A stretch of 32,000 bases of DNA from Candidatus Helarchaeota ASGARD archaeon Hel_GB_B (GTDB lineage: Archaea > Asgardarchaeota > Lokiarchaeia > Helarchaeales > HEL-GB-B), in the NCBI GenBank assembly GCA_005191425.1, contig SUPR01000004.1, positions 34,729-66,728 on the forward strand, in the 5' to 3' direction. Shown one piece after another: positions 7,413 to 31,405 of this stretch. Position 1 is the first letter of the stretch. The number at the start of each line of letters is the position of its first letter. The notes beneath the pieces were generated by a model that was given only the letters and a program-made list of their open reading frames with translations, searched no databases and was not told the origin of the DNA. The translations under genes were made by a program, and so were the position numbers.

Positions 7413-8558
7413 CTAATGTTTTTTAAGACACTCATTTAACTTTTCTCTATAGCTTTCGGCTTTATCTTGCTCGTTCAATTTCTCACTAATCTTCAAAGCT
7501 CTTCTATAATATCTTGCAGCATTTCTGAAATCATTGTTTGAATAGCATTGTCTTGCTAATTTTAAAATATTTGACCGCTCTAAATTTATTTCTTCAATTG
7601 AAAAAAACATTTTTGATGTTTTTTTAACTAAAAACCACTTGTTATAGACAAATAAACCTAAAAGACCACATAAAAAGACAATTGTTAGAATTAAATAAAA
7701 TGGCCAGACAATAATGTTATCTTGTAGGGCTAATGCATTAAAAATATTTACCCATAGTCTTAAATTATCACCAATAGAATACCATTTAACTCCAATAGAA
7801 GGATTAATCGAGTCACTAAACATTTCTGTAGCTCCACATGTAATAATTAATGATCTACCTACTTGAAATCGTAACAACCAATAAGGGGGAGAATATATTT
7901 TATGTAAAGAAGAGAAATAATAATAAGACATTGTAGGTCCATAAGCACCATCATATTTTAAATAAGGCGCTGTTATATTAATGCATGAAGACCTTATAAT
8001 TACATTTGATATTTTAGAACCCAATATAGAGTTTGAAAATTGAAGATAATTGATTTTTATTAAAGTAGGTTCTCCATTATAATTTTCTGATTGGTCTTCA
8101 TCAACTATGTCAGCAGTTGTAAATTCTATTGGAATACTTAAATTTCCTAAAATATTGTTTAAAAGAAATGGCTTTCCTCTCTTTTGTAAATTGCTTTGAT
8201 GATAATAATCTGACATGATTAAAAGACATCCACCCTCTTTCGTCCAATTTATTATCGATTCAACTTCAAATAAGGTAAAAGTAGTGCCATTTCCTGGATT
8301 TGGAATTACTAAAATATCATAATTCTTTAATATTGTATAATTTAATTGCGTTCCATTTTTATTTAATTTGACAATAAAATTACCCGATTGATTTAGGTAA
8401 TCTAAGGCACTTACAAAATTACCATTAGAATATGTGAAATATTGATTGTGTGATTCATCAAAAAGAACCATTAATTTTGAAGAATTTAAAGAATTAGAAT
8501 GGGGAATAAGTGTAAATATTTGAATTATTAAAAGAATGATTATTATATTGATGCTCAT
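7413..8558 (-). CDS. Single-pass membrane protein: signal peptide, GIFT/DUF4350/GldG-like extracellular domain, TM helix, cytoplasmic TPR/MIT-like tail
   Basis: Hydrophobic MSINIIIILLIIQIF at ATG 8558 (ORF track extends to 8639); VLFDESHNQ...YDILVIPNP...EGGCLLIMSD; TM WPFYLILTIVFLCGLLGLFVY; helical 60-aa tail. Confidence 0.65.
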   Translation of the reverse strand: MSINIIIILLIIQIFTLIPHSNSLNSSKLMVLFDESHNQYFTYSNGNFVSALDYLNQSGNFIVKLNKNGTQLNYTILKNYDILVIPNPGNGTTFTLFEVESIINWTKEGGCLLIMSDYYHQSNLQKRGKPFLLNNILGNLSIPIEFTTADIVDEDQSENYNGEPTLIKINYLQFSNSILGSKISNVIIRSSCINITAPYLKYDGAYGPTMSYYYFSSLHKIYSPPYWLLRFQVGRSLIITCGATEMFSDSINPSIGVKWYSIGDNLRLWVNIFNALALQDNIIVWPFYLILTIVFLCGLLGLFVYNKWFLVKKTSKMFFSIEEINLERSNILKLARQCYSNNDFRNAARYYRRALKISEKLNEQDKAESYREKLNECLKKH

Positions 8559-8723
8559 ATATTTCTTTGTCAATTCTATCACTATTTTAAAATATGATGA
8601 ATAAATTAATTCAAAATATTTAAAGTTATTTTGATTCATTTAATATTAATTTAACTTTAATTTTTTTCAGTAAATTAAAAAATATTTTTTACAATAGGTA
8701 AAATAATATAAATAACCTATTTG

Positions 8724-14524: not shown

Positions 14525-15142
14525 TTATTCTTCAAGAGATTTTTTCAATTCGTCAATTTGTTCCTGTAATTGTTTCTTTTTAGTAGAAACAGGTTCCGTT
14601 GAAGGGACTTCAGGGATAATACCCGCCGTTTCTAGCTGGTCTTCCATTTCTAATCTATTTAATTCTCGTTCCACATCTAAATCTTCCAATTCATCTCCAC
14701 CGATTGCCGTTTCAAAAATATCGCCAACTCTTTCTATCTCAGCAATACTTTCTTCTGTTTCTAGACTAATTTCCAGAGCTCTATCAGATGAAACAATTTT
14801 TCTCGCTGCTTGTAATTCTTTACTAGCTAATTCCATCGCAGAAGTAAGCGTCTGGATATCAGCAGCTTCTTCAAGCGCTATAATACGGTCTTCTAATCTA
14901 TTTGTAAAAGCAGTATAACGATTAGCCATCTTTTGAAATTTTGACCACCGCGCTAAATATTGTTTTGCAGATTTTTTATTTCCGGCTTTTAAGAATTGCC
15001 TTGCCCGTCTATGGCTATCCGCGGCTCTTTTTACAAAAACTTTTTGTCTTAATTCTAATTTATTGATTGATGCTCTTAACTCTGCTATAGCATCCTCTTT
15101 CTTAGGCTTTTTACCCGGGAATAATTTTTTAAAAACACTCAT
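14525..15142 (-). CDS. ESCRT-III protein, Vps20/32/60 (Snf7) class
   Basis: Amphipathic MSVFKKLFPG, basic N-half/acidic C-half, ELEDLDVERELNRL, MIM2-like IPEVPSTEP. Confidence 0.88.
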   Translation of the reverse strand: MSVFKKLFPGKKPKKEDAIAELRASINKLELRQKVFVKRAADSHRRARQFLKAGNKKSAKQYLARWSKFQKMANRYTAFTNRLEDRIIALEEAADIQTLTSAMELASKELQAARKIVSSDRALEISLETEESIAEIERVGDIFETAIGGDELEDLDVERELNRLEMEDQLETAGIIPEVPSTEPVSTKKKQLQEQIDELKKSLEE

Positions 15143-15440: not shown

Positions 15441-18212
15441 TTAAATTTCAATCATTGAGGCATTGATAATTTCATTCATTAATTCTTTTAATTCGTCTAG
15501 TTTATTATTATCTGTTGATACGCCTATAAGTGTTGCTATATTATTTGTTTTTGATTTTGTTGCTGTGAGGGCAATTTTACAGTCTTCTTTTTCAAACAAT
15601 ATAACCGGTATCTCTACTTGAATATTTATATTATTACAAATCCAATTTTTGTTTTTCAGAAATTTATAAGCTTTTTTAAGGAATTCATTTGGGTTTTCTT
15701 TAATTTCTTTTGAAATATCTGTGGAAAATGTTTGTTCTTTGAAATTAAATAAGTATTGATAAAATTTGTAAGTAATGAACCTCTTATTATATGCCATTAA
15801 TGCTGGAATAGGTAGATTAATTTCAATGTTTTGAATTTGGTCAATTTTATTTTCTTCATTAATTTCAAGTTCTGTTCCTAATATTGTTTTTTCAATTTCG
15901 GAATCTGAAATTGAGCTATCTTCCATTTCAGCATTAAAATCTATAAATTTAGATGTTTCTCCACCAACAACTTTAGGTAATTCTTCGTTATCTTTTTGAT
16001 TATTTTCTGTTGTATTTAGACTTTTTTCTTTTTCCAGAGTTTCAACTGGTATTACTGGCTGATCCATTGCATCTATGATATCTGGGAGTGATTCACGTCC
16101 TGCATGCTGACTGCACCTTGGTCTTACATGTAAAACAAAACATCTTGAAGTACTTATTGATTCATCAGCAATTAAACCACTACCCACAGCCATACTCCTA
16201 AAAAAGCTAGATTTTTCTACATCTTTAGGTATATCTCCTGGGATCCGCGTAACTAGTGCATTGATGTCGGTCTTATAAGTTAATAAGTGTGATAGAAGAA
16301 TATCTAATTGTGATAAAATTTGTGAGTTAGTAGCAGCTGGCTGTTGGGTAACTAAAACAAGACCGCATCCTGGTTTTCTCCCCAATTTTGCATATTGAAT
16401 TAATGGTTCTGATGCAGCTGTTTTTCCACTTGAAGGTATTAAAAGATGAGCTTCATCAATTAATAACCATGTTACTGGAATTTCATTTATTCCAGTCTCA
16501 ACTTTTACAGATCTATCAACTTTTGCTGCATCTAATCTCCTTGAAATCCTTAATCTCTCTTTTAAAATTTTTCGTGCTAAAATTCCTATTATTAAAGATC
16601 TTAGCCCCTCTTCTAAAAAACTAACATCAATTACAGAAATTTGGTTAGGTACTGAAAGATCACTTAATTTAGTACCTGTATTTGAAAATATACCCCAATC
16701 TCTTGCTATTTCAAGTCGCGAAATAACAGCTCTTCTAGTCCTCACATCAAAACCTTGTGATTTTGAAGTTAACATTCGAGATTCATTTATACAATCTATT
16801 AGATCAGCTAAAGTAAAATAATCTCCCATTCTAGGGACTGGAATTCCAAATTCGTCAATATATCCTTCTCTTACTTGGTTTATTGCTTTTTCAATTAGAA
16901 TTCCTCTCGGACTAAATCTATCAATTCCAAATGTATAACACCAATCATCTGCAGTTAATTCACTTGGTAAAAGAGAAAAAGCCTCATCACGGGTAGCTTC
17001 AGAACATGAATTGTAAAAACCTAATGGAACAAAAATTTTCACTTTTTCTGCAAATGACTTTGGTTCTAAACCCCATTTTTTTAATACATCTACCTCTTTA
17101 CTTGTCCAATTTCCAAATTTCATACTCCAAAAAATTCCCATTGGATCGACAATTATAGTCCCAATTCCTATATTTGTCTTGGCCAATTCCTCGGCTATAA
17201 CTCCCATTGTATATGATTTCCCAGAACCTCGGTGACCACAAATGAAAATAACATGTGGTTTTACACAATCTAAATATATATCTCTCCCAAAATGACCTAA
17301 ACTCTGTTCTGGTTTTTCACAAACTTTACCAATATATAATAGACCTCGATTTCCAATTTTTTTATGAAAACTTCTAGACCTCCCCAAAATTCCCACGTTT
17401 TTTTCTTCATCAATTAAAATTTCAAGTTCCTCGCTTATTATAGGTGTATAATCACCAAATAAATCATGTTTCCAGTTTTCAATTTCACCAATTGCATAGG
17501 CTGTGGCTATATACAAATCTTTAGCTGTCTTTAATTCTGAAATCATGTTGTCTAATATATATCTTCTCAAATCAAGAGAAGTAGGATAATACTCTTTTTC
17601 ATACCCTGATATTTCCCAAATAAAATAATCTAATGAATCATCCTTGGACAAATCATCAAACGGTTCAACAAGCGTATATGCAGGCGCTAAGTAATCTGGA
17701 TTTCGAGTCAAAAGATACAATAGAATATAAAACTTAAAATCATTGATTGATTCTAACTTTTCTTCAATGATCTCTAAAATCTTATTTTTGTATCTTTCAT
17801 CTATTGTCCTTTTATATACAAAATACAAAATTTGAAAATTAATAAATTTTAATTCGTCAAGGTTTATATTAATAACATCTTCTTGGAATTCTTTAACATA
17901 ATTACTAACTTCTTTTAAATTCTTTAATTCTACAAGTCTATAATATAACAAAATCAAATTAATACTATTTTCATCTAAATTTTTTCTATCTATAGTTTGT
18001 AAGTCATTTCTAGGCCCCTTTGAAAAAATGTTTTTCTCAATTCTTGAAAAAATATCTTCACCATATTTTTCATCGATAGCTAATTTATATAAATTAATAT
18101 ATGCCAGTGAAAGTAGTATCCTTTCATTAATATCGTCTGGATCAGGCTCATAATTCCATAATTGATTGGTAATTTTTTGAATTATTGTATAATTTAACAC
18201 TTTATCACACAT
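15441..18212 (-). CDS. HerA/FtsK-superfamily (DUF87/COG0433-like) P-loop ATPase with helical N-terminal domain and C-terminal alpha/beta domain
   Basis: Walker A GHRGSGKS, IIVDPMG, Walker B LLIDEAH, GRKPG Arg-finger region, VTQQP sensor; about 250-aa helical N-terminus, acidic linker before the C-terminal domain. Confidence 0.85.
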   Translation of the reverse strand: MCDKVLNYTIIQKITNQLWNYEPDPDDINERILLSLAYINLYKLAIDEKYGEDIFSRIEKNIFSKGPRNDLQTIDRKNLDENSINLILLYYRLVELKNLKEVSNYVKEFQEDVININLDELKFINFQILYFVYKRTIDERYKNKILEIIEEKLESINDFKFYILLYLLTRNPDYLAPAYTLVEPFDDLSKDDSLDYFIWEISGYEKEYYPTSLDLRRYILDNMISELKTAKDLYIATAYAIGEIENWKHDLFGDYTPIISEELEILIDEEKNVGILGRSRSFHKKIGNRGLLYIGKVCEKPEQSLGHFGRDIYLDCVKPHVIFICGHRGSGKSYTMGVIAEELAKTNIGIGTIIVDPMGIFWSMKFGNWTSKEVDVLKKWGLEPKSFAEKVKIFVPLGFYNSCSEATRDEAFSLLPSELTADDWCYTFGIDRFSPRGILIEKAINQVREGYIDEFGIPVPRMGDYFTLADLIDCINESRMLTSKSQGFDVRTRRAVISRLEIARDWGIFSNTGTKLSDLSVPNQISVIDVSFLEEGLRSLIIGILARKILKERLRISRRLDAAKVDRSVKVETGINEIPVTWLLIDEAHLLIPSSGKTAASEPLIQYAKLGRKPGCGLVLVTQQPAATNSQILSQLDILLSHLLTYKTDINALVTRIPGDIPKDVEKSSFFRSMAVGSGLIADESISTSRCFVLHVRPRCSQHAGRESLPDIIDAMDQPVIPVETLEKEKSLNTTENNQKDNEELPKVVGGETSKFIDFNAEMEDSSISDSEIEKTILGTELEINEENKIDQIQNIEINLPIPALMAYNKRFITYKFYQYLFNFKEQTFSTDISKEIKENPNEFLKKAYKFLKNKNWICNNINIQVEIPVILFEKEDCKIALTATKSKTNNIATLIGVSTDNNKLDELKELMNEIINASMIEI

Positions 18213-18555: not shown

Positions 18556-19158
18556 CTATTTTTCCTCTTTTAGTCTTTTAATTTCCTTTTCAAGTTCAGC
18601 TATTCTTGATGGTGTTGATGGTAATGCCATACCTGTTTCTACTGAAATTTCTTGGTCAATTTCTGCCAAAACTTTATTGGTTTCTTGGGGTGAAACTTCT
18701 GTCTTTACGGTAATATTTTGAATTCCATCTTGTGCCATGTCTTGGGCTATATCGAACCCTTCAATTTGAGAATCAATTTGGTCTATAATCTGTGTAACAT
18801 TCTGGATATTAACTGATGAACGTAGTCCATTTAATGCTCTATGGATTCCGCTCAAGATTTTAGCCGTTTCAGCAGTTGCTTGGGTCTGTTTTAATTTCAT
18901 TAATAAACCCATGATATGTAGACGATAAGTATCAACTCCTAATGCCCATTTTTGAAACCTTACCGTATTTTCTGCATATAATTTAGCAGCTGCATCGTTT
19001 CCTTGTTCTCTATATTTTCTTGCCCTTGCTCTATTCTGAAGACTTTCCTTTTCCAATGTTTTCCTTTGATAATCTAATTTCCTACAAAATACATCAATCT
19101 TAAATATCAAATTCTTAAGATTATTTCCTTTTAACCAGTTAATGAATTTTGACGCCAT
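18556..19158 (-). CDS. ESCRT-III protein, Vps2/24/46 (CHMP1/Did2-like) class
   Basis: AAKLYAENTVRF resembles CHMP1 helix 2; C-terminal LPSTPS plus MIM1-like AELEKEIKRLK. Confidence 0.88.
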   Translation of the reverse strand: MASKFINWLKGNNLKNLIFKIDVFCRKLDYQRKTLEKESLQNRARARKYREQGNDAAAKLYAENTVRFQKWALGVDTYRLHIMGLLMKLKQTQATAETAKILSGIHRALNGLRSSVNIQNVTQIIDQIDSQIEGFDIAQDMAQDGIQNITVKTEVSPQETNKVLAEIDQEISVETGMALPSTPSRIAELEKEIKRLKEEK

Positions 19159-19831: not shown

Positions 19832-21016
19832 ATGAGTAAGATATTATTTCAGAAAGCAATGGAAATAGCAAAAAATGCGATTGCTTTAGACGAAGAAGGT
19901 AATTATGATACAGCGATTAAAAGGTATTTAGAATCTGCAGATATATTAATGCGATATATTCAATTATCAACGAATCCCGAAATGAAACGTATTTGTTATG
20001 AACGAGCTCAGGAATATATTAGACGTGCAAGTGAGTTAAGAGAGGCGACTCCTTCTCGGCGTCGAAAGGTATCAAGACCAAGAGGTAAAAGAAAAGATGG
20101 AAAGGCCCCTAAAAGTTCTGAGCCCTTAACTGAAGAAGAAGAAAAATTAAGAGATGCTATTTCTGAAACAATTGTTGTTGAAAAGCCAAATATAAAATTA
20201 TCAGAAGTAGCTAACTTAGAAACTGCAAAACAGGCATTAAGAGAATCTATTATATTACCCATTTTAAGGCCAGATCTTTTTAAAGGTGGAAGACAACCTT
20301 GGAAGGGGATATTATTATATGGCCCGCCCGGATGTGGTAAGACTTATTTGTCCAAAGCAATTGCCACTGAATGCGATGCGACTTTTTTGAATGCTGATGC
20401 CGCATCTTTAGTATCAAAGTGGCTTGGTGAATCTGAGCGTCTGATAAAAGAATTATTCTCATTGGCAAGAGAGGAAGCGCCATCTATTGTTTTTATTGAT
20501 GAGGTTGATAGTATTGCCACTGCACGAGGCGCTAAAGAAATGGGCGGTGAGAGACGAATAAAAACGCAGTTATTAATTGAAATGGACGGGATGAAAGCAA
20601 AAAAAGATGAACGGATAATAATTCTAGGTGCAACAAATAGACCATGGGATCTTGATGCAGCATTTAGAAGAAGATTTGAAAAGAAAATATATATTGGTCT
20701 TCCAGACGTTAAAGCTAGGGAACTAATGTTTAAGTTAAATACTAGAGAAGTTGAAATTGCACCAGACATAGATTTTAGTGAATTTGCAAAATTAACTGAA
20801 GGTTATACCGGGTCTGATATTTCACTCTTATGTCGTGAAGCTGTAATGATGCCTATCAGGGAAATCGATTTAACCCAAGATATTACTCGTATTGACAAAG
20901 TCCGACCAGTATCAAGAGATGATTTTATTGCAGCAATGGAAAAAATCAAACCAGTTGTTTCTCCCGAAGAATTAAAACAATACGATGAATGGACACAAAA
21001 TTATGGAATGGAATGA
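19832..21016 (+). CDS. vps4: Vps4 AAA+ ATPase (MIT + AAA)
   Basis: N-terminal MIT (AIALDEEGNYDTAIKRY), GPPGCGKT, VSKWLGESE pore loop, FIDEVD, ATNRPWDLDAAFRRRFEK, C-terminal YDEWTQNYG. Confidence 0.96.
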   Translation: MSKILFQKAMEIAKNAIALDEEGNYDTAIKRYLESADILMRYIQLSTNPEMKRICYERAQEYIRRASELREATPSRRRKVSRPRGKRKDGKAPKSSEPLTEEEEKLRDAISETIVVEKPNIKLSEVANLETAKQALRESIILPILRPDLFKGGRQPWKGILLYGPPGCGKTYLSKAIATECDATFLNADAASLVSKWLGESERLIKELFSLAREEAPSIVFIDEVDSIATARGAKEMGGERRIKTQLLIEMDGMKAKKDERIIILGATNRPWDLDAAFRRRFEKKIYIGLPDVKARELMFKLNTREVEIAPDIDFSEFAKLTEGYTGSDISLLCREAVMMPIREIDLTQDITRIDKVRPVSRDDFIAAMEKIKPVVSPEELKQYDEWTQNYGME

Positions 21017-21023
21017 ACTTAAT

Positions 21024-21845
21024 ATGGAAGAAGGTATAAAAAAGAAAAAAGAACAAGAAGAGGAAAAAGGTGAAGAAAAATCAGTTGAAGACCTAGAAAA
21101 TGAATTAAAAAAACTACAACAAAAAATAAATGCAAGCACTGGAATTGCTAAGCGAAAATTAGCTAAAAAAATAGAAAATAATTCAAAAATATCTGAACAT
21201 AAGAGTGTTAACCTCAGTACAAATATGATATCTTTGTCTGAAACGGAAATAAAGAAAGAAGATGAACGAGGAACTCAAATTAAAAAATTATGGGAAATTT
21301 ATAAATGGGCTGATAACCATGAAAAATTTCCTTGGATGTATTTTATACCTGACAAAAAGTCTAGCGGAGATAATTGGAAAGAAAACTTCGAAGCATGGAA
21401 AAATGATTGGGTAAAATTCACTATTGATTGGGCACGTGTCTATATATTTCATATTCTTGATATGTATGAAATAGTTAAAGAAAAACCATATATTTTTCTT
21501 AATGAACGAGAAAAAGCAATCAATATTATTTTTAAAAATCTTGTTGATATGAAACGAGGAAAAAATAAATTAGCCCAATGGATTGGTAAAGATAAAAACA
21601 AGATCCGAATATATTGGAGAAGTCTAGATGAATGGGCTAATTTGTTATATGAATGGGCAATTAATGGTGGAGGAGATATTTTTACATTAATCGATTTAAA
21701 AAAAGCAGGTGAAGAGATTCCTGGATTCGATACATTACCAGATGAGGATATAAGAGAAATAATCAATATTCTAGTTAGGCAAAAAAAAGCCAGATGGATT
21801 GACAAACAATTAATTAGAGTAAAAATATTGGTTAAAGGACTTTAA
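21024..21845 (+). CDS. vps25: ESCRT-II Vps25-like protein with charged N-terminal extension
   Basis: FPWMY (PPxY-like), WKNDW, YWRSLDEWANLLYEWA, IFTLIDL, LVRQKKARW winged-helix pattern; likely ATG 21024 (ORF track starts 20985, overlapping vps4). Confidence 0.88.
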   Translation: MEEGIKKKKEQEEEKGEEKSVEDLENELKKLQQKINASTGIAKRKLAKKIENNSKISEHKSVNLSTNMISLSETEIKKEDERGTQIKKLWEIYKWADNHEKFPWMYFIPDKKSSGDNWKENFEAWKNDWVKFTIDWARVYIFHILDMYEIVKEKPYIFLNEREKAINIIFKNLVDMKRGKNKLAQWIGKDKNKIRIYWRSLDEWANLLYEWAINGGGDIFTLIDLKKAGEEIPGFDTLPDEDIREIINILVRQKKARWIDKQLIRVKILVKGL

Positions 21846-21858
21846 TTATTTGTATGAA

Positions 21859-22581
21859 TTAGCCACCAAGACCTGGAAAATAATATCTTTTACCAGTAGC
21901 ATAAGATAAATCAACCTTGGCTATATTATTATCTATTAAAGTTTGCAAAACTCTTTCAATGCGATCTTGGGTCCAATTTGTATTCATTAAGATCTCTTCT
22001 AATGTTATATAACCTTTTTTTGATGCCAAATTTAATATTATACTTTGATCTGGCGTTAATTCTACTGGAATAAATTCTACAATTTTTATTCCAGAATCTA
22101 ATTTTTTAATTCCTGGAATGATGTCTGCATTTTCGAGTATATTTATTGCTTTAATTACATCCAAGGCAGATACCACATCATTTGGTCTCCCTTCATTGAT
22201 CATCAACACTACTTCTGCAAGAGTCATTATTCCACCGGTCTCAAGTATTTTCTTTTTAGCCATATTTAAAATTTGGACACTTAATTGATTATAAAATTGT
22301 CCTTTCCCCGTGATTTTTTCTATCATATTTGGTTTGACTTTAAATTTTTCACTAGGTATTTCTGACATACCTATTTCTAGCCTAATTTTCTTTAATTTTT
22401 CTTGATATTCTGGGTTTTCTACAATTAAATCTCCATATTTATTTTCAAATTCTTCTATTTGTTTTCTTAATTCTTTAACTGAATTCAACATTAATTCCAA
22501 TTCTTTAACCATATATTCAGGTGATTTTTTTTTGATTTTGGCCCTTAATTCAATATCTTTTTCAATCTCCCGTAAACCCAA
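21859..22581 (-). CDS. vps22: ESCRT-II Vps22/36-like (EAP30 domain) protein
   Basis: FYNQLSVQI, GGIMTLAEV, DVIKAINIL, PVELTPDQSIIL, WTQDRIERVL, YYFPGL; TTG start with AGGTGA SD. Confidence 0.92.
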   Translation of the reverse strand: MGLREIEKDIELRAKIKKKSPEYMVKELELMLNSVKELRKQIEEFENKYGDLIVENPEYQEKLKKIRLEIGMSEIPSEKFKVKPNMIEKITGKGQFYNQLSVQILNMAKKKILETGGIMTLAEVVLMINEGRPNDVVSALDVIKAINILENADIIPGIKKLDSGIKIVEFIPVELTPDQSIILNLASKKGYITLEEILMNTNWTQDRIERVLQTLIDNNIAKVDLSYATGKRYYFPGLGG

Positions 22582-22641
22582 TATAGAATCACCTAATTTT
22601 ATTTAATACTACTTTTATCATATTGTAATTTTAATATAGAA

Positions 22642-23601
22642 TTAGAGGTCTTGAAGGCGCCTCTTAAAGTCTTGGGCCCATCTAACCACATCAAATTCCA
22701 ATTCACTATTTTCATCAGAATCCAGTATTTCATTCGGATTTTTTACTGATAATTTTTCTCTCCATTGATTGGCTGCTTTATATACCCAGTAATCCTTTCC
22801 AAAACCTGGAAATTTTTCTATAATTAATAAAATATCATCTAATATAGGCATGATTGAACTAACTTTTGCCATATCTAATTTTGTATAATCTGAAATTGTA
22901 ATAAAATGTGCCACAAGATCCGAACTCATTGTAGCTATCTTAGCTTTAGAAACACTTGCAATTTCAAGCGGTGAAATTTCAACAATTGATTTCTCGGAAA
23001 ACCTTAATTTTTGAGTCGCAAAAGGAAATCGTTCCGCAATTTTTTCTCTCTTTAAGAATTCTTCCATATTATAATCTATTTCTTTTAATTCTAACTGAGC
23101 TTTAAATGCATCTCTCATTAAAGACCGTAATTGCCTTTTATAAGTGGGCGGGTCTAATTTTCCCTCTTCAAAATTCTTAATTACACTGTTCAATGTGGCA
23201 ATACACGAATAAAATTCAGCTTCTATTTTTAGTCGGTCGTCTTCAGTAATCTTTTTTCTAATTTTTATTTTTGATTTATCCAATTTTGAAGTTTTCTGGG
23301 CAGTTTTTCGCGTTTTTTCTATATTTTTTGGCTCTAGATCTATTTTCTTTTGTACTTTATTTATTGAATTATTTTGGCCTTTTTTTTCCTCCTTTACAAA
23401 TTGCTTTTCTTCCAGATTTTTATTATCTACTTCTTTTGTTTTAACTTTATCTTTTATTATTTCTTTTGTAGTTACTGTTTTTCGTGCCAATTCCGATTGT
23501 AATAATGCTAATTCTTCTTCCAACTCTTCTATGGTCTTATCGTCTGCTAATTTATCTTCTTCTATCTTCCTTTTCTCTAATAAACTCATATCAGCAACCA
23601 T
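22642..23601 (-). CDS. vps28: ESCRT-I Vps28-like protein (both N- and C-terminal domains) with charged N-terminal extension
   Basis: AEFYSCIATL...TYKRQLRSL (headpiece helices); LVAHFITISD..KL, IMPILDD, QWREKL, ELEFDV (C-terminal four-helix bundle). Confidence 0.88.
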   Translation of the reverse strand: MVADMSLLEKRKIEEDKLADDKTIEELEEELALLQSELARKTVTTKEIIKDKVKTKEVDNKNLEEKQFVKEEKKGQNNSINKVQKKIDLEPKNIEKTRKTAQKTSKLDKSKIKIRKKITEDDRLKIEAEFYSCIATLNSVIKNFEEGKLDPPTYKRQLRSLMRDAFKAQLELKEIDYNMEEFLKREKIAERFPFATQKLRFSEKSIVEISPLEIASVSKAKIATMSSDLVAHFITISDYTKLDMAKVSSIMPILDDILLIIEKFPGFGKDYWVYKAANQWREKLSVKNPNEILDSDENSELEFDVVRWAQDFKRRLQDL

Positions 23602-23685
23602 TAAATCTATTTATCTCTAAATTAATAATATAATAATCTAAGTTAAAAAATATTTTAAAATTAAAAAAATTTCTTGAAAAAATTT

Positions 23686-24462
23686 TTAACTCGATTTAAG
23701 CTCTTCAAGTTTCTTATTTATCAAATATAGATTTTTTGTATATTTTTTATATAATCTAGAATATTCTCCTGAACCTATCTCTGCATTATCAAATTTTTCC
23801 TCAAGCGTCTGAAGAAGATCTTCTATTGCTATTTTTTCACTTTCCAAATCGATAATTTGTTTTTTAATTGGATCTGAAGGTAATAATATGCTTTCTAAAT
23901 TACTTGTACCCTCATCTGGGACATTATGGACGTCCAGTTGCCCTCTTAAATGTGCAACAACTTCATCTCTTTGAGTTAATCCATCTCTCAGTGAATTAAT
24001 TTCAGATTCAAGTCTCTTCACTTCTCTCTCTAATTTTTCCTCTTTACTTGATGGAATATATGAAACTGGTTCATGTTCTGGTTCTTTTTTTGCTTGAAGA
24101 TTCCTATTTAAAAGGGAGGCTAATTTTGGGGGTACACGTGCATATAACCCTTTTATTGAATTAATTACTTGATAAACATGATAATCTGGTCTCCAATATG
24201 TTAAAATTCGAAGATGAACTTGACCATTCTCATCAACTTTTGGATGTTCTGTTGGGGTTATCATTTTTACTGTAGGTGGCTTTTTAGGAAAAGCGTCAGG
24301 TATTCTTATTTCCAACTCGAAATTTGTATTTTTATATTCACCTCTACCCGGAATACTACCCCTCCAAATTTTTAAATTACCACCTACTGGCTCAAATTCT
24401 TTCGCGCGTTTATATAATAATTCTGCTTCTTTTGCCAATATAAAGTCAAGCTGTTCTGACAT
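23686..24462 (-). CDS. vps23: ESCRT-I Vps23/TSG101-like protein: UEV domain, coiled coil, steadiness box
   Basis: UBC fold lacking the catalytic Cys (HPKV...GQVHL); heptad segment; AIEDLLQTLEEKF..AEIGSGEYSRLY steadiness-box-like. Confidence 0.88.
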   Translation of the reverse strand: MSEQLDFILAKEAELLYKRAKEFEPVGGNLKIWRGSIPGRGEYKNTNFELEIRIPDAFPKKPPTVKMITPTEHPKVDENGQVHLRILTYWRPDYHVYQVINSIKGLYARVPPKLASLLNRNLQAKKEPEHEPVSYIPSSKEEKLEREVKRLESEINSLRDGLTQRDEVVAHLRGQLDVHNVPDEGTSNLESILLPSDPIKKQIIDLESEKIAIEDLLQTLEEKFDNAEIGSGEYSRLYKKYTKNLYLINKKLEELKSS

Positions 24463-25207: not shown

Positions 25208-25636
25208 TTAATGAGAGGGTGATTTTGGTTTTACTATTTTCTTTAGTACTGAATATATTTTTGCTTCTAAATTATTTTCAAGTGTTATAATGGTCTGATT
25301 TAAATTTTTAATTGAATTTTCTAAAATATCAAATTTTTTTTGATTTTCTTTAATAGATTTTTCAATTTTATCTTGAATTGATGACACTCCCTCTTTTAAA
25401 GCGGAAAATGAAATCGTCTCTTCAGCTAATAATTTTTTTAAACTTTTCAGTTCTCTTTCTACCGATTCCATCATTTTCAAAACCTCATTATTAATGTCTG
25501 ATCTATTTTTTGCCATTTCTTCATTCAAAATATTTAGGCCCTTGACTATTTCTTTAACTGCATCAATTGTAGGAACTGGCCCAACAGGTGTATCTAATGC
25601 GTCAATTTCAATCTCAATTTTTTCATTTTCAGACAA
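25208..25636 (-). CDS. Hypothetical coiled-coil protein
   Basis: 142 aa, TTG start with GGATGAG upstream, N-terminal DTPVGPVPT followed by continuous heptads. Confidence 0.7.
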   Translation of the reverse strand: MSENEKIEIEIDALDTPVGPVPTIDAVKEIVKGLNILNEEMAKNRSDINNEVLKMMESVERELKSLKKLLAEETISFSALKEGVSSIQDKIEKSIKENQKKFDILENSIKNLNQTIITLENNLEAKIYSVLKKIVKPKSPSH

Positions 25637-28302: not shown

Positions 28303-29913
28303 ATGGTTGATTATAACAAAAAATGCAATGTTAATAAAAATATTGTTTTTTACAATAATTTTAATACTAAAAAAATTAAAGAATCAATTTTAAATGCTTT
28401 AATAGAAATAGTTAATGAATTATATGAGTCAAATAATATTTCAACTTATGAAAAATATTTAGTTCCACTAAAAAATTTAAGAGACGATACGCATTTAATA
28501 TATTTGGCGGAATATCTTAAGAAAATCAACTGTAAAACAATAATCAAAGAGAGCAATTATATAGATAAAGTATATTTAAATGATTTCTCGCAATTTTATG
28601 TAAGATGTTTTCCCCATTATAAAAAAACTTGCTCAAGATTGCATTTTTTTAATTTAGAAATTACTGAAGATGATTTTTACGATAATTATCTCTTAGGAAA
28701 AAACCTTCAAGAACATTATTTGGGATTTTCTATTATTAAACCACTTCCATTTTTTCTGGGTCGGACATGTGTCAAACCATATTTTGATCCTAATAATAAT
28801 TCGACTTTTTTTATACAACAAAAATACGAAGTAAATTTATGTGGTAAACCATTACATATAAATTCATTAATATTTCATGATAAAGATAAAGCAACAGCAG
28901 CATGCTCAACGGTTGCTCTCTGGATTTGTTTTCAAATGACCTCTCATTTATTTAAAAATCATTTACCATTACTTTCTCCATTGGAAATTACTAAACTTGC
29001 ATCTAAATCTACAACATCACCAAATAGATTAATTCCGAACAAAAGTTTAACCACGCTTCAAGTAGTTTCAATAATAAAAGAACTTAATTTGGAGTTAGAG
29101 CAACGAAAAGCTAGAAATAAGGACATTTTTTCCTTTATTTATGCATATATTCATTATAAAATTCCAATAATTCTTCTTATTGAAAGGTATAAAAATAATA
29201 GAAGGATTGGTCATGCTGTTATTGTTTCTGGAATTATTTTTAATAATTATCAAGAAAACAAATTTTTAAAAGGAAAAATTAAACTAAAAGCCCATTTCAT
29301 TAATGAATTATTAATACATGATGATAAAATTGGCCCATATATAAAAGTAACTCTTGAAATGAAAGAAAATTCATATAATCATTATTATACAATTCATATA
29401 GGTAATAATGAATATAAAATAAACAATATAATTGTTCCTGTTTATCATAAAATTAGAGTAGCACTTGAAGATATTTTATATAATAAATTTTTTATTGAGA
29501 TTAATAATTTATTTAATGAAATTTTTTCCCAAAACTCTAAAAATAATAAGAATATAGTGTCAACAATTATGTGGGATATTTTTTTGACTGATATCAATGA
29601 ATTTAAAAAAGATATTGCAAATCTCAATATCGATACTCAACTAAAAAAATCAATACTCATTTCGCCCTATCCAAAATATTTATGGCGTGCAATTATGTAT
29701 AACTACAAAAAAGATAAAATAATTCCAATATTTGAATTTCAAGTTGATGCAACTGACCTACCAAAATCCATATTTATCTATAAATCATTTTTTTATGGAA
29801 AATATAATATATTTTTTAAGCTTGGATATACAGTTGAAGGTTTAAAAAATAAAAAATATACTGATTTAGTGGAAAAAATAAAAGATCGCCTAATAAAACC
29901 CATAAAAAATTAG
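28303..29913 (+). CDS. Hypothetical protein with papain/C39-like cysteine peptidase signature
   Basis: AAC201STVALW, IGH304AVIVSG, LIHD340DKIGPY; N-terminal YIDKVYLNDF..FYVRCF...RLHFF block. Confidence 0.6.
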   Translation: MVDYNKKCNVNKNIVFYNNFNTKKIKESILNALIEIVNELYESNNISTYEKYLVPLKNLRDDTHLIYLAEYLKKINCKTIIKESNYIDKVYLNDFSQFYVRCFPHYKKTCSRLHFFNLEITEDDFYDNYLLGKNLQEHYLGFSIIKPLPFFLGRTCVKPYFDPNNNSTFFIQQKYEVNLCGKPLHINSLIFHDKDKATAACSTVALWICFQMTSHLFKNHLPLLSPLEITKLASKSTTSPNRLIPNKSLTTLQVVSIIKELNLELEQRKARNKDIFSFIYAYIHYKIPIILLIERYKNNRRIGHAVIVSGIIFNNYQENKFLKGKIKLKAHFINELLIHDDKIGPYIKVTLEMKENSYNHYYTIHIGNNEYKINNIIVPVYHKIRVALEDILYNKFFIEINNLFNEIFSQNSKNNKNIVSTIMWDIFLTDINEFKKDIANLNIDTQLKKSILISPYPKYLWRAIMYNYKKDKIIPIFEFQVDATDLPKSIFIYKSFFYGKYNIFFKLGYTVEGLKNKKYTDLVEKIKDRLIKPIKN

Positions 29914-30115: not shown

Positions 30116-31405
30116 ATGAATATGAGCTATGACTACAAAGGAGATAAACAAATTTTAGATGAAAATACTCTTGATAAAGAATTAAAACGTTATGCAAGGC
30201 AGATTATGCTCGAGGAGTGGGATCAAGATAAAGTTTCAAACGCTACCATTTTTATTGCAGGTGTTGGTGCTTTAGGTACAATTGCAGCTATGAATTTAGC
30301 TTTAATGGGAGTAAAAAATTTGATACTTTGTGATTATGATACTGTCGAACTCTCAAATTTATCGCGACAGGTTTTATTTTTCGATGAAGATATTGGAGCG
30401 TTTAAAGTTGACGCTGCAAAAAAGAATTTATATCGATGGAATCCAGATTTAGACATCAGGATTTTTAATTCCCGACTTCAGGAAATCGATAAGAAAGTGT
30501 TTGAGGGTTCTGATATTATAATTGATGGACTTGATACATTTTCTGCGAGAAGATGGTTAAATTCTATGGCTGTAAGCTTAAACAAGCCACTAATTCACGG
30601 GGGATTATTTGGGTGGTTTGGAAATGTCCAAATAATAATTCCTGGTGAAACTGCGTGTTTAGAATGTCATCCTCTTATACCTCAGAAAAGATTACAGAAA
30701 CCATGTACACCGCTTGGTAAGGTAAGGTCTGCAGAACGCAAGGAAATTGTTGAGTCAGATGATAAAAAGATCCCATCAATTTTAACGGTCGCGTCTATTA
30801 TTGCCAGTATTCAGGTCCAAGTAGCATTGAAAATAATTTTGAATATACCTCTTTCTCATGATAATTACATTTTTTATGATGGGCTTTCTAATTCCTTTAC
30901 TAAAATGTATCTTGCGAAAAATGAGAATTGTATTATATGTTCTAATAAATATAAAACTAAGGGAGTGGAATTATCTATTTCTAATGATGATACTGTGAGG
31001 ACCATTAAAGATCGAATAATAATGACGTGGGATATAAGTGAACCATTTAATTTTATGTTTAGAGGTAAAATTTTAGAGGATTCAACAAAGATTAAAGATT
31101 TACAAATGAAAAATAGAGATGTTTTTTACGTTTGGAATAAATATATACTGCAGCCTATGAAATTTTATGCCATTTTTTCGGACGAGATTGAGCCCATCAG
31201 AATCGAACTCCCCTTAAAACCCAAGATTCTCCAAATAGTAGTCGACCGTGGGTATATTACGCGGACTAAACAAAAAATATTAGAAAAAGCAAAAAATTTA
31301 GACCAAACTGTAAAATTTTACAAAACAAAAAAATTAGATGACGGAAAATATCTTATACGATATAAAATTTTTAAAAAGTCAAATAATTCTAAAATTATTA
31401 GGTGA
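30116..31405 (+). CDS. Ubiquitin-activating enzyme E1-like (ThiF adenylation domain, catalytic Cys, Zn motifs, C-terminal ubiquitin fold)
   Basis: RYARQ, GVGALG, DYDTVELSNLSRQ, DGLDTFSARRWLN, ACLEC, KPCT, NCIIC, then a Ubl-like DTVRTIK...FRGKILED segment. Confidence 0.93.
   Translation: MNMSYDYKGDKQILDENTLDKELKRYARQIMLEEWDQDKVSNATIFIAGVGALGTIAAMNLALMGVKNLILCDYDTVELSNLSRQVLFFDEDIGAFKVDAAKKNLYRWNPDLDIRIFNSRLQEIDKKVFEGSDIIIDGLDTFSARRWLNSMAVSLNKPLIHGGLFGWFGNVQIIIPGETACLECHPLIPQKRLQKPCTPLGKVRSAERKEIVESDDKKIPSILTVASIIASIQVQVALKIILNIPLSHDNYIFYDGLSNSFTKMYLAKNENCIICSNKYKTKGVELSISNDDTVRTIKDRIIMTWDISEPFNFMFRGKILEDSTKIKDLQMKNRDVFYVWNKYILQPMKFYAIFSDEIEPIRIELPLKPKILQIVVDRGYITRTKQKILEKAKNLDQTVKFYKTKKLDDGKYLIRYKIFKKSNNSKIIR

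Follow-up and report, generated by a model that had tools for sequence, protein, structure and literature searches.

A HerA-like ATPase encoded within the ESCRT-III gene pair of Asgard archaea, a probable partner of the ESCRT machinery

The ESCRT locus of Hel_GB_B

The window, i.e., the whole stretch of 32,000 nucleotides of the Helarchaeota genome Hel_GB_B analysed here, carries a cluster of ESCRT genes, in which a gene for a HerA/DUF87-family ATPase is placed between two genes for ESCRT-III proteins. The genes and features discussed below are as follows.

14525..15142, minus strand: ESCRT-IIIB (Snf7- or Vps20/32/60-like), 205 aa; Pfam Snf7, E = 1e-17; downstream of the ATPase gene
15441..18212, minus strand: HerA/DUF87-family ATPase, 923 aa, or perhaps 919 aa if started at the GTG at 18200
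15444..15824, minus strand: C-terminal alpha+beta domain of the ATPase (C-domain), aa 797-923; AF2 pLDDT 92.6
15825..16082, minus strand: acidic low-complexity linker, aa 711-796; 23 D/E against 7 K/R, pI 4.05
16083..17426, minus strand: ATPase core, aa 263-710; Pfam DUF87 and HerA_C
16338-16352, minus strand: TQQP sensor, VTQQP, aa 621-625
16368-16385, minus strand: GRK arginine finger, LGRKPG, aa 610-615
16446-16466, minus strand: Walker B, LLIDEAH, aa 583-589
17214-17237, minus strand: Walker A, GHRGSGKS, aa 326-333
17448..18212, minus strand: N-terminal domain (N-domain), aa 1-255, 12-helix alpha/alpha toroid in the AF2 model, pI 4.6
18556..19158, minus strand: ESCRT-IIIA (CHMP1/2/3- or Vps2/24/46-like), 200 aa; Pfam Snf7, E = 4e-18; upstream of the ATPase gene
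19832..21016, plus strand: Vps4 (MIT, AAA and Vps4_C); Pfam and NCBIfam CdvC; divergent from ESCRT-IIIA
20985..21845, plus strand: Vps25 (ESCRT-II); Pfam ESCRT-II, E = 1e-12; its first 32 nt are shared with the end of Vps4
21859..24462, minus strand: Vps22/36-like (EAP30), Vps28 and UEV-Vps23 (ESCRT-II and ESCRT-I); Pfam EAP30, VPS28 and UQ_con/UEV/Vps23_core

The order proposed in the original prediction, ESCRT-IIIA, ATPase and ESCRT-IIIB on the minus strand, is thus confirmed, as both flanking genes encode Snf7-family proteins, CHMP1/2/3-like upstream and Vps20/32/60-like downstream. ESCRT-IIIA had CHMP1B (8v2q, at 1e-12) and CHMP2A as its best PDB matches, and its orthologs occupy the same position beside the ATPase gene in relatives; ESCRT-IIIB matched 9fn1 (4e-17), the Heimdall AB_125 ESCRT-IIIB (9ftl, 5e-12) and yeast Snf7 (1e-7). 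Two Snf7 genes in total were found in the genome, which is 94% complete, both of them flanking the ATPase gene. The spacers separating the latter from ESCRT-IIIA and ESCRT-IIIB measure 343 bp and 298 bp, respectively, in line with the gaps of about 300-340 bp given in the original prediction, and spacers of this length are peculiar to the source genus. Both are AT-rich and an oligo-T run follows ESCRT-IIIA, so the three genes may have separate transcripts here. No RNA dataset containing the locus or the ATPase gene was listed; all matches were to DNA runs of metagenomes from hydrothermal vents and marine sediments. The absence of NurA, Mre11 and Rad50 from the vicinity, also claimed beforehand, held for the 20 ORFs of the window that were scanned for these domains.

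Catalytic core and accessory domains of the ATPase

Although the ORF was confirmed at its full length, translation of the ATPase perhaps begins at codon 5, a GTG, which would make the protein 919 aa long instead of 923 aa. This start is suspected because a database copy (P0004) identical to the ATPase at 100% has 919 aa, and because a genome of the same genus (G126) has no ATG at the upstream start position. Judging from its sequence, the protein is a P-loop enzyme from the FtsK-HerA superfamily (HerA branch) with the full set of catalytic motifs. Pfam matches to the DUF87/HerA central domain (50.6 bits; cut-off 23.2) and HerA_C (28.7 bits; cut-off 22) were obtained, and the nearest solved structures in a PDB profile search were all HerA proteins (9x1l, 4e-11; 8xau, 6e-11; 4d2i, 2e-8). 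The two Walker motifs, GRK and TQQP are invariant across 36 orthologs, among which 60+ residues of the core are identical, and the HMMER alignment pairs LGRKPG and VTQQP with GRK...SQRPS of HerA 9x1l and 8xau. The core is basic (pI 8.6). There was no Pfam match to FtsK_SpoIIIE (PF01580) at E≤0.01, nor did Pfam find an AAA, MIT, UEV, ubiquitin-binding or winged-helix domain in the protein; a transmembrane segment was likewise absent (top 19-residue hydropathy, 1.42). By analogy with other HerA/FtsK proteins, we infer that the ATPase assembles as a hexameric ring with a central pore.

The N-domain was modelled by AF2 with a pLDDT of 83 as 12 helices across residues 8-252, and its top structural matches were all alpha/alpha toroids, comprising the thioester domains of CD109, A2M and C3, GH76 and LanC (Z 10-11.7, 220-235 residues aligned). 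An MIT-like or Bro1-like domain was rejected, as neither appeared among these matches. An ESM Atlas fold search with the N-domain returned just noise at TM<0.3, and neither the N-domain nor the C-domain had a match in ESM Atlas feature searches. The stretch joining the N-domain to the core, ~45 residues that were modelled poorly, contains two short strands (264-278). An acidic linker is shared by 34 of the 36 orthologs; its length ranges from 37 to 113 aa. In the C-domain, R811 and Y815 are invariant. Its fold resembles a 'TrmB C-terminal domain' cluster in AFDB (TM 0.79, E 5e-7) as well as PGM domain IV (Z 10.2) and the KA1 and adaptin-appendage platform domains (Z ~8) in PDB, a broad tie at Z 7-10 that favours no single function; Pfam at E≤1 yielded scattered chance matches only. 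HMMs of the two domains matched the ATPase at 2.6e-78 (N-domain) and 1.5e-43 (C-domain). The architecture described in the original prediction therefore survives for the most part: a 923-aa ORF, intact Walker A/B, GRK and TQQP motifs, an acidic linker and an extra C-terminal domain were all recovered from the translation and the models. The N-terminus is helical as claimed, while the stated lack of a HAS barrel upstream of the core applies, in the model, to a complete barrel, which does not fit, and not to a remnant, which may persist.

With archaeal and bacterial HerA of the HerA-NurA system (PDB 4d2i, 9x1l-9x1p), the ATPase has DUF87 and HerA_C in common; Walker A/B, the GRK arginine finger and the Q sensor align, and a ring translocase would be expected. 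Nevertheless, its scores lie far below the cut-offs of the HerA equivalogs (NF040819, 46.7 bits against 970; NF040937, 37.5 bits against 800), the N-domain is modelled as a toroid where HerA has its HAS barrel, and the acidic linker, the C-domain and the ESCRT-III operon setting have no parallel in HerA. HerA pairs with NurA, whereas the ATPase has no such partner; the source genome has two separate HerA-NurA pairs, its NurA matches being confined to contigs C98 and C139, where each adjoins another DUF87/HerA paralog. FtsK/SpoIIIE belongs to the same superfamily and provides the proposed analogy of a DNA pump tied to a membrane-constriction machine, but the ATPase, with neither the FtsK_SpoIIIE match nor a transmembrane segment, is not an ortholog. 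Vps4/CdvC, encoded in the same locus beside ESCRT-III, is a hexameric ATP-driven motor, as the ATPase is taken to be. The two differ in that Vps4 belongs to the AAA+ proteins and binds ESCRT-III tails through its MIT domain, while the ATPase carries a RecA-like P-loop domain of the FtsK-HerA type and no MIT domain. Since Vps4 is also present, the ATPase is an addition to the module and not a replacement.

Gene order and phylogeny across Asgard lineages

We define here an Asgard ESCRT-III-embedded HerA-like ATPase clade, which corresponds to no published family, by the succession of N-terminal toroid, HerA-like core, acidic linker and C-domain in a protein encoded beside ESCRT-IIIA and/or IIIB; the source ATPase shows all of these features. 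Sequence comparisons place it in a distinct Asgard clade with the added toroid and the C-terminal alpha+beta domain. The N-domain HMM matched all ESCRT-linked orthologs but none of the 10 Thor-type and none of the 53 non-Asgard homologs, and none of these homologs has an ESCRT gene within 10 kb; the C-domain is also found in the Thor-type homologs. Proteins bearing the N-domain form one clade (SH-aLRT 93), the monophyly of which was not rejected by the AU test (p 0.375), and in the tree the source ATPase groups with the linked sequences of Hel, Jord/Frey, Wukong and 'Hod'. Three sequences from Thermoplasmatota are also nested in the clade. The nearest sequence family comprises DUF87-winged-helix ATPases of Methanofastidiosa, Theionarchaea, Iainarchaeia/other DPANN and Hadarchaeota, which form the sister clade and are 44-50% identical to the ATPase over the core (~254-710). 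These proteins start ~10 residues before the core and so lack the N-domain, and they carry a TrmB/MarR winged helix, the counterpart of the FtsK gamma winged helix C-terminal to the motor, where the Asgard ATPase has its C-domain. When the Asgard C-domain was compared by hhalign with the C-terminus of the non-Asgard homologs, which includes the winged helix, no match was obtained. The winged helix has been lost from the Asgard clade, and no module recognisable as DNA-binding was seen in its additions, which are either acidic or neutral. The sister-clade genes have neither ESCRT neighbours nor a shared conserved neighbour; among the non-ESCRT homolog loci no common partner gene was found, as the biggest neighbour clusters are lineage-specific and cover at most 11 of 76 loci.

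The clade's gene is kept inside or beside the ESCRT-IIIA/IIIB pair across several classes. An ESCRT-III gene on the same strand adjoins the ATPase ortholog in 21/21 genomes from seven GTDB families (f1, f2, f20, f21, f26, f32 and f33), which represent Helarchaeota, Jordarchaeia/Freyarchaeota, Wukongarchaeum and 'Hodarchaeota'-labelled lineages. ESCRT-III genes lie on both flanks in 14 of the 21, four others being cut by contig ends, and the spacers in relatives are mostly 5-117 bp. In an eighth, 'Heimdallarchaeota'-labelled family (f18), seven of ten loci show the ATPase followed by a 342-aa helical protein and then a Snf7 gene (Pfam 2e-16), which is ESCRT-IIIB. The helical protein is homologous to a 345-aa helper encoded by an extra gene in the Jord/Frey loci; two queries for this helper in the source genome found nothing. 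The search for orthologs in ESCRT loci of other Asgard genomes, which the original prediction had called for, thus gave a positive answer for every genome of seven families and for most loci of an eighth. No NurA was found in 40 ortholog loci by ESCRT queries and neighbour clustering. A 1169-aa frame in Hel_GB_A (L036) that appeared to fuse ESCRT-IIIA to the ATPase is explained by a string of N in the scaffold and is no genuine fusion.

The surroundings vary among lineages: Vps4 and Vps25 adjoin the three genes in some of them and are absent from the Jord/Frey loci, and MazG/CBS follow in Hel only, which indicates that the IIIA-ATPase-IIIB trio itself is the conserved unit. Where the trio is broken, the ATPase gene stays with one ESCRT-III gene, IIIA alone in f26 and IIIB in f18. 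In lineages devoid of the ATPase, on the other hand, IIIA and IIIB stand in tandem, 0-45 bp apart, so the ATPase gene occupies the interior of an operon. Adjacency of the two ESCRT-III genes in relatives had been named beforehand as a sign of chance insertion; as it was seen solely in these ATPase-less lineages, it points instead to an accessory gene gained or lost within the IIIA-IIIB operon. From the gene orders compared, the placement within the ESCRT-III gene pair is no chance insertion. The ESCRT-linked ATPase is present in ~33 of 400 Asgard species genomes and absent from the large Loki-type families and the sister family f3, a patchiness indicating that it is dispensable for ESCRT function. 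No ESCRT-IIIA/IIIB motif distinguished carrier from non-carrier lineages; both the WLxGG N-terminus and the MIM-like tail of IIIA are found whether or not the ATPase is present.

Possible roles beside ESCRT-III

A functional link between the ATPase and ESCRT-III, resting on the conserved gene order, appears well supported, and we consider it likely that the two work together in some form. Our preferred reading, to which we assign a probability of roughly 45%, is that a HerA-branch ring motor, with DNA as its favoured substrate, was added to the Asgard ESCRT-III module in an accessory role. The N- and/or C-domains would dock the ATPase to the ESCRT-III polymer, to adaptors or to the membrane neck, and ATP-driven threading of a polymer through its pore would take place at sites of ESCRT-III remodelling. 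DNA might be cleared or moved at the constricting neck or loaded into ESCRT-made vesicles, much as FtsK/SpoIIIE acts at the septum. DNA is favoured because those HerA and FtsK proteins that have been characterised work on it, because the sister clade has a TrmB/MarR winged helix and because the core is basic. A further hint is that Asgard ESCRT-III and Vps4 bind chromatin according to a review (PMC12993045). Even so, action specifically as a DNA translocase together with ESCRT-III is a tentative proposal. Of the role originally predicted, a translocase working with ESCRT-III, the link is upheld by gene order, and DNA clearance or vesicle loading still derives from family membership. Complex prediction with the N-domain against ESCRT-IIIA and IIIB gave a score of 0.00, which speaks neither for nor against binding. 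It is attractive, if doubtful, to picture the ATPase as a second, non-AAA+ motor of the module and a counterpart of FtsK, docked by the toroid and the C-domain and driving DNA, chromosomal or plasmid-borne, through the neck or out of it. Genome handling would then be coupled to ESCRT-III scission in division, in the severing of protrusions or in DNA-carrying vesicles, by a motor that was not inherited by eukaryotes. FtsZ occurs in 383 of the 400 Asgard genomes, including all carrier families, and is uninformative as a discriminator; ESCRT-driven cytokinesis, and hence division-coupled DNA clearance, cannot be assumed.

Alternatively, the ESCRT-III-coupled motor may act on protein, as a second remodelling or extraction ATPase or a neck scaffold ring beside Vps4, with ESCRT-III subunits, ubiquitylated cargo or an adaptor threaded through the pore. 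The conserved gene order fits this explanation equally, and the locus is a ubiquitin-ESCRT cargo-sorting cluster. VirB4 and other protein-secretion ATPases fall within the FtsK-HerA superfamily, so a protein substrate has precedents. The DNA-binding winged helix of the sister clade is replaced in Asgard by the acidic linker, the toroid and the alpha+beta domain; alpha/alpha toroids often bind ligands or proteins, and the C-domain has among its fold neighbours some that bind peptides (adaptin-appendage platforms) or lipids (KA1 domains). Those fold matches, however, tie too broadly to single out a function, the closest sequence families are all HerA-type DNA enzymes, the ATPase has no MIT, UEV or ubiquitin-binding domain by Pfam, and Vps4 is already present in all carrier genomes. 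We therefore regard a protein motor as unlikely.

The ATPase could also be a passenger, i.e., a HerA-family enzyme unrelated to ESCRT (for DNA repair or chromosome maintenance, for example) whose gene was inserted a single time within the ESCRT-III pair of an early Asgard ancestor and then retained by operon inertia. The monophyly of the linked clade would permit such a single founding event, and the patchy distribution with frequent loss, the Thor-type and non-Asgard homologs functioning with no ESCRT neighbour, and the long spacers in the source genome are all compatible with it. What renders it improbable is that the trio persists while its surroundings are rearranged between classes, that broken trios keep the ATPase with IIIA or IIIB, and that the N-domain is confined to the linked form. 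Moreover, the chance of lying ≤3 kb from either ESCRT-III gene in a 3.5-Mb genome is ~0.3%, and gene order this deep presumably seldom persists in archaea without selection.

HerA-family ATPases are frequent in defence systems, and the generic HerA, mad8 and terminase-like matches in PADLOC and PHROGs (E 1e-18 to 1e-7) would suit a defence motor or a virus-derived packaging ATPase, but we hold this to be very improbable, as the NCBIfam anti-phage HerA score is 22.5 bits (NF042943; cut-off 800), neither Sir2, DUF4297 or a nuclease nor any other effector is encoded next to the ATPase, no integrase, repeat or composition break surrounds it, and its constant position among housekeeping genes from class to class is not what a defence island would show. 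Homology to the anti-phage ATPases Sir2-HerA (8xau) and DUF4297-HerA (8ziq, 9c1m) was detected at E 6e-11 to 6e-8, over the C-terminal half of the ATPase core.

HerA, FtsK and DUF87 are unmentioned in Makarova 2024, Hatano 2022, Souza 2025, the Lu 2023 preprint and a 2026 review, in which an unlabelled arrow of a synteny figure may nonetheless stand for the gene. On the comparisons made here, the ATPase is probably an unrecognised partner of the ESCRT machinery inherited by eukaryotes. As the proteins are soluble and their domains are modelled with confidence, assays with already-purified Asgard ESCRT-III are straightforward. ESCRT-III and Vps4 have been treated as a complete two-part scission machine, of which the Asgard version serves as a model of the pre-eukaryotic state. 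If a conserved extra motor does belong to the IIIA-IIIB operon, the archaeal ESCRT machine has a part missing from current reconstitution work, and perhaps a further activity, for instance the handling of nucleic acids at the neck, and the old proposal of HerA-type pumps as the archaeal answer to FtsK would be revived in a directly testable form.

The ATPase gene in the ESCRT locus

The window lies on contig C128 of the source genome, a 3.5 Mb, 94%-complete Asgard genome, and the three genes of concern are encoded on its minus strand:

14525-15142, minus strand: ESCRT-IIIB, downstream of the ATPase; matches Vps20/32/60-like proteins and the Heimdall AB_125 ESCRT-IIIB
15441-18212, minus strand: the ATPase, a 923-aa ORF
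18556-19158, minus strand: ESCRT-IIIA, upstream of the ATPase; CHMP1/2/3-like

Both ORFs flanking the ATPase belong to the Snf7 family (Pfam), and their identities bear out the transcription order ESCRT-IIIA, ATPase, ESCRT-IIIB that had been read from the sequence; these were the only Snf7 genes found in the genome. Genes for Vps4, Vps25, Vps22/36, Vps28, UEV-Vps23, an E2 and an E1-like protein adjoin them. The Vps25 ORF begins 32 nt ahead of the Vps4 stop in a different frame (window 20985-21016), and this overlap suggests that the two genes are translationally coupled. In the E1-like ThiF ORF (30116-31405, plus strand), Pfam detected a ubiquitin-family domain (residues 282-337; 1.5e-6), such that the E1 and the Ub-like fold form one polypeptide. 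Two ORFs adjoining the ESCRT/ubiquitin cluster, 7413-8639 (minus strand, 408 aa) and 28303-29913 (plus strand, 536 aa), gave no Pfam match at E<=1e-4, and ORF 25208-25636 has a sub-threshold match to Sec10_N (25.7 bits; cut-off 27.4).

The closest database proteins to the ATPase are labelled Helarchaeota or Promethearchaeota. As the database copy is 919 aa long and the first codon is not ATG in the same-genus genome G126, the true start is probably a GTG four codons into the ORF. The Pfam search placed a DUF87/HerA central domain at residues 312-549 (50.6 bits; cut-off 23.2) and HerA_C at residues 572-644. All four motifs of the original prediction (Walker A, Walker B, GRK and TQQP) were found in the translation, and are invariant among 36 orthologs. 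Against PDB, the family profile retrieved HerA structures only (9x1l at 4e-11, 8xau, 9c1m and 4d2i), and the alignment spans Walker B, the arginine finger and the sensor. The catalytic core is thus shown, at the sequence level, to be an intact one of the HerA family. It is basic, and hydropathy along the ATPase sequence revealed no membrane-spanning hydrophobic segment. The source genome additionally encodes two separate canonical NurA-HerA (DUF87) pairs (C98:22046-24206 and C139:61485-63648), indicating that the ESCRT-linked ATPase is an extra paralog rather than the repair helicase. Contigs C135 and C140 hold two more DUF87 matches, each in a very long ORF (1379 and 1443 aa).

Gene order across Asgard archaea

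The ATPase protein and the Snf7 model served as queries against 400 Asgard species genomes. We fetched 20 kb around 40 hits and added another 80 loci taken from a wider collection; the ESCRT proteins of the window were then used to screen the ORFs of these loci. Whether orthologs sit in ESCRT loci of other Asgard genomes, as the original prediction would have it, was answered positively: an ESCRT-III gene adjoins the ATPase gene on the same strand in 21/21 genomes of seven GTDB families (f1, f2, f20, f21, f26, f32 and f33), labelled Helarchaeota, Jordarchaeia/Freyarchaeota, Wukongarchaeum and 'Hodarchaeota'/Promethearchaeota. ESCRT-III genes occupy both flanks in 14 of these genomes, and in four more a contig end truncates the locus. 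In the three genomes of f26, ESCRT-IIIA and the ATPase remain beside Vps4/Vps25, with ESCRT-IIIB 18 kb off. The spacers between the ATPase and ESCRT-III genes measure 5-117 bp in the relatives; those in the window (298 and 343 bp, AT-rich) are peculiar to this genus. An apparent ESCRT-IIIA-ATPase fusion in Hel_GB_A proved to be an artefact of scaffold Ns.

In f18 ('Heimdallarchaeota' label), the ATPase is followed by a 342-aa helical protein and then Snf7 in 7/10 loci. This protein is homologous to an extra gene between the ATPase and ESCRT-IIIB in the Jord/Frey loci (BLASTP 3e-6 over 290 aa); neither of two queries detected the gene in the source genome.

L132:12179-13207 and L039:6933-7970, both plus strand (f18 and Jord/Frey f21 loci): helper protein of about 345 aa, helical, no Pfam match, directly downstream of the ATPase and before ESCRT-IIIB

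The remaining neighbourhood varies from class to class, the contact between the ATPase and ESCRT-III being the conserved part. Only about 33 of the 400 Asgard genomes carry the ATPase. Genomes without it, including those of the sister family f3, encode ESCRT-IIIA and ESCRT-IIIB in tandem, 0-45 bp apart, so the ATPase gene lies within an otherwise tightly coupled two-gene operon. The tightness of the ancestral pair is evident from f3, the nearest ATPase-less family, in which the stop and start codons overlap (G128, L163:405-1648; ESCRT-IIIA 405-1028, ESCRT-IIIB 1028-1648). Full Asgard ESCRT-III/ATPase loci were also recovered under the labels of unrelated taxa, namely Deferrimicrobium (L077, DATKTP010000243.1), Thermoproteota (L088, JAPDJY010000048.1) and Bathyarchaeia (L110, DATKZI010000013.1), which are probably mislabelled bins.

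Accessory domains and relatives of the core

The two ends of the ATPase lacking a domain assignment were modelled from alignments of 36 orthologs. The N-terminal domain is predicted to form 12 helices over residues 8-252 (pLDDT 83), and its good structural neighbours are all alpha/alpha toroids: the CD109, alpha-2-macroglobulin and C3 thioester domains, along with GH76 mannanases, epimerases and LanC. The matches (Z 10-11.7, 220-235 residues aligned, about 4 A) are consistent with the alpha/alpha-toroid fold class, albeit such Z scores in helical proteins are no proof of homology. The fold is not that of an MIT bundle. Since the poorly modelled junction from toroid to core comprises only about 45 residues, and non-Asgard homologs start about 10 residues ahead of the core in the domain HMM comparison, the family appears to have no separate HAS barrel. 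The linker (residues 711-796; 23 D/E vs 7 K/R) is variable in length and acidic in 34/36 orthologs. Residues 797-923 gave a confident alpha+beta model (pLDDT 92.6), the top match being the AlphaFold cluster 'TrmB C-terminal domain' (TM 0.79, E 5e-7); in PDB, phosphoglucomutase domain IV was matched at Z 10.2, and the KA1, adaptin-appendage platform and BamC domains followed at Z about 8 with little to separate them. These matches indicate a fold class, not a function.

Homologs of the core are widespread. A 730-770-aa form occurs in about 76/89 genomes of f31, probably Thorarchaeia judging from an Atlas cluster label, and an 800-aa form in Methanofastidiosa, Theionarchaea, DPANN groups, Hadarchaeota and others; Methanofastidiosa, Theionarchaea and others are the nearest non-Asgard relatives. 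An ESCRT gene lay within 10 kb in 0/10 Thor-type and 0/53 non-Asgard loci, and these did not share any other conserved neighbour either. Domain HMMs detected the N-terminal domain in ESCRT-linked forms only and the C-terminal domain also, weakly, in Thor-type homologs. Non-Asgard forms carry instead a C-terminal TrmB/MarR-type winged helix, which has no profile similarity to the Asgard C-terminal domain; in database proteins P0077, P0060, P0064, P0118 and P0089, the same core is followed by a winged helix of the TrmB/MarR/TFIIE type around residues 640-740. FtsK is laid out in a parallel way, with its motor and gamma domain, and the non-Asgard family appears to be uncharacterised.

An exception outside the 53-locus set is L090 (DAOVFL010000017.1, Bathyarchaeota label), an 11-kb contig encoding Vps4, a Snf7-like protein, an unknown gene, a Vps25-like protein, a Zn-ribbon protein and a 770-aa ATPase that has the C-terminal domain (E 5.5e-20) and lacks the N-terminal one. 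Either this is mislabelled Asgard DNA, or the ESCRT linkage reaches beyond Asgard.

In the core tree, a single clade (SH-aLRT 93) holds the proteins bearing the N-terminal domain, and the Thor-type group and the non-Asgard group each have a clade of their own (support 100). Three Thermoplasmatota proteins (L138, L148 and L154), one of them 1246 aa long with a DUF835 domain, nest within the ESCRT-linked Asgard clade, a placement that could stem from transfer out of Asgard or from a long-branch effect. The AU test did not reject strict monophyly of the proteins with the N-terminal domain (p 0.375). Sequence comparison has shown the architecture to be specific to this clade and the gene order to be kept across classes.

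Possible role of the ATPase

The original prediction envisaged a DNA translocase coupled to ESCRT-III. Its link to ESCRT-III is well supported by the conserved gene order; the pumping of DNA is only what we infer. The ATPase would act as a hexameric ring working together with ESCRT-III, and DNA seems the best candidate for its substrate because, to our knowledge, all close families that have been characterised work on DNA, because the sister clade has the FtsK-like motor-plus-winged-helix layout, and because the core is basic. According to a recent review (PMC12993045), chromatin is bound by Asgard ESCRT-III and Vps4, and this also argues for DNA. Against it count the loss of the winged helix and the gain of acidic or neutral modules in the Asgard clade, the small share of Asgard genomes with the ATPase, and the presence of FtsZ in all carriers. 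The rivals are that the ATPase is a protein-directed motor or that it is a conserved passenger of the locus; a defence or mobile ATPase is poorly supported.

Full-text literature searches combining HerA, FtsK or DUF87 with ESCRT and Asgard retrieved nothing relevant. The gene is unmentioned in the text of the principal comparative and structural studies of ESCRT, namely Makarova 2024 (PMC11188069), Hatano 2022 (PMC9192718), Souza 2025 (PMC11804906), the Lu 2023 preprint and a 2026 review, albeit it may appear as an unlabelled arrow in their figures. The ATPases described here constitute a HerA-family clade of new architecture in a new, conserved ESCRT-III context.
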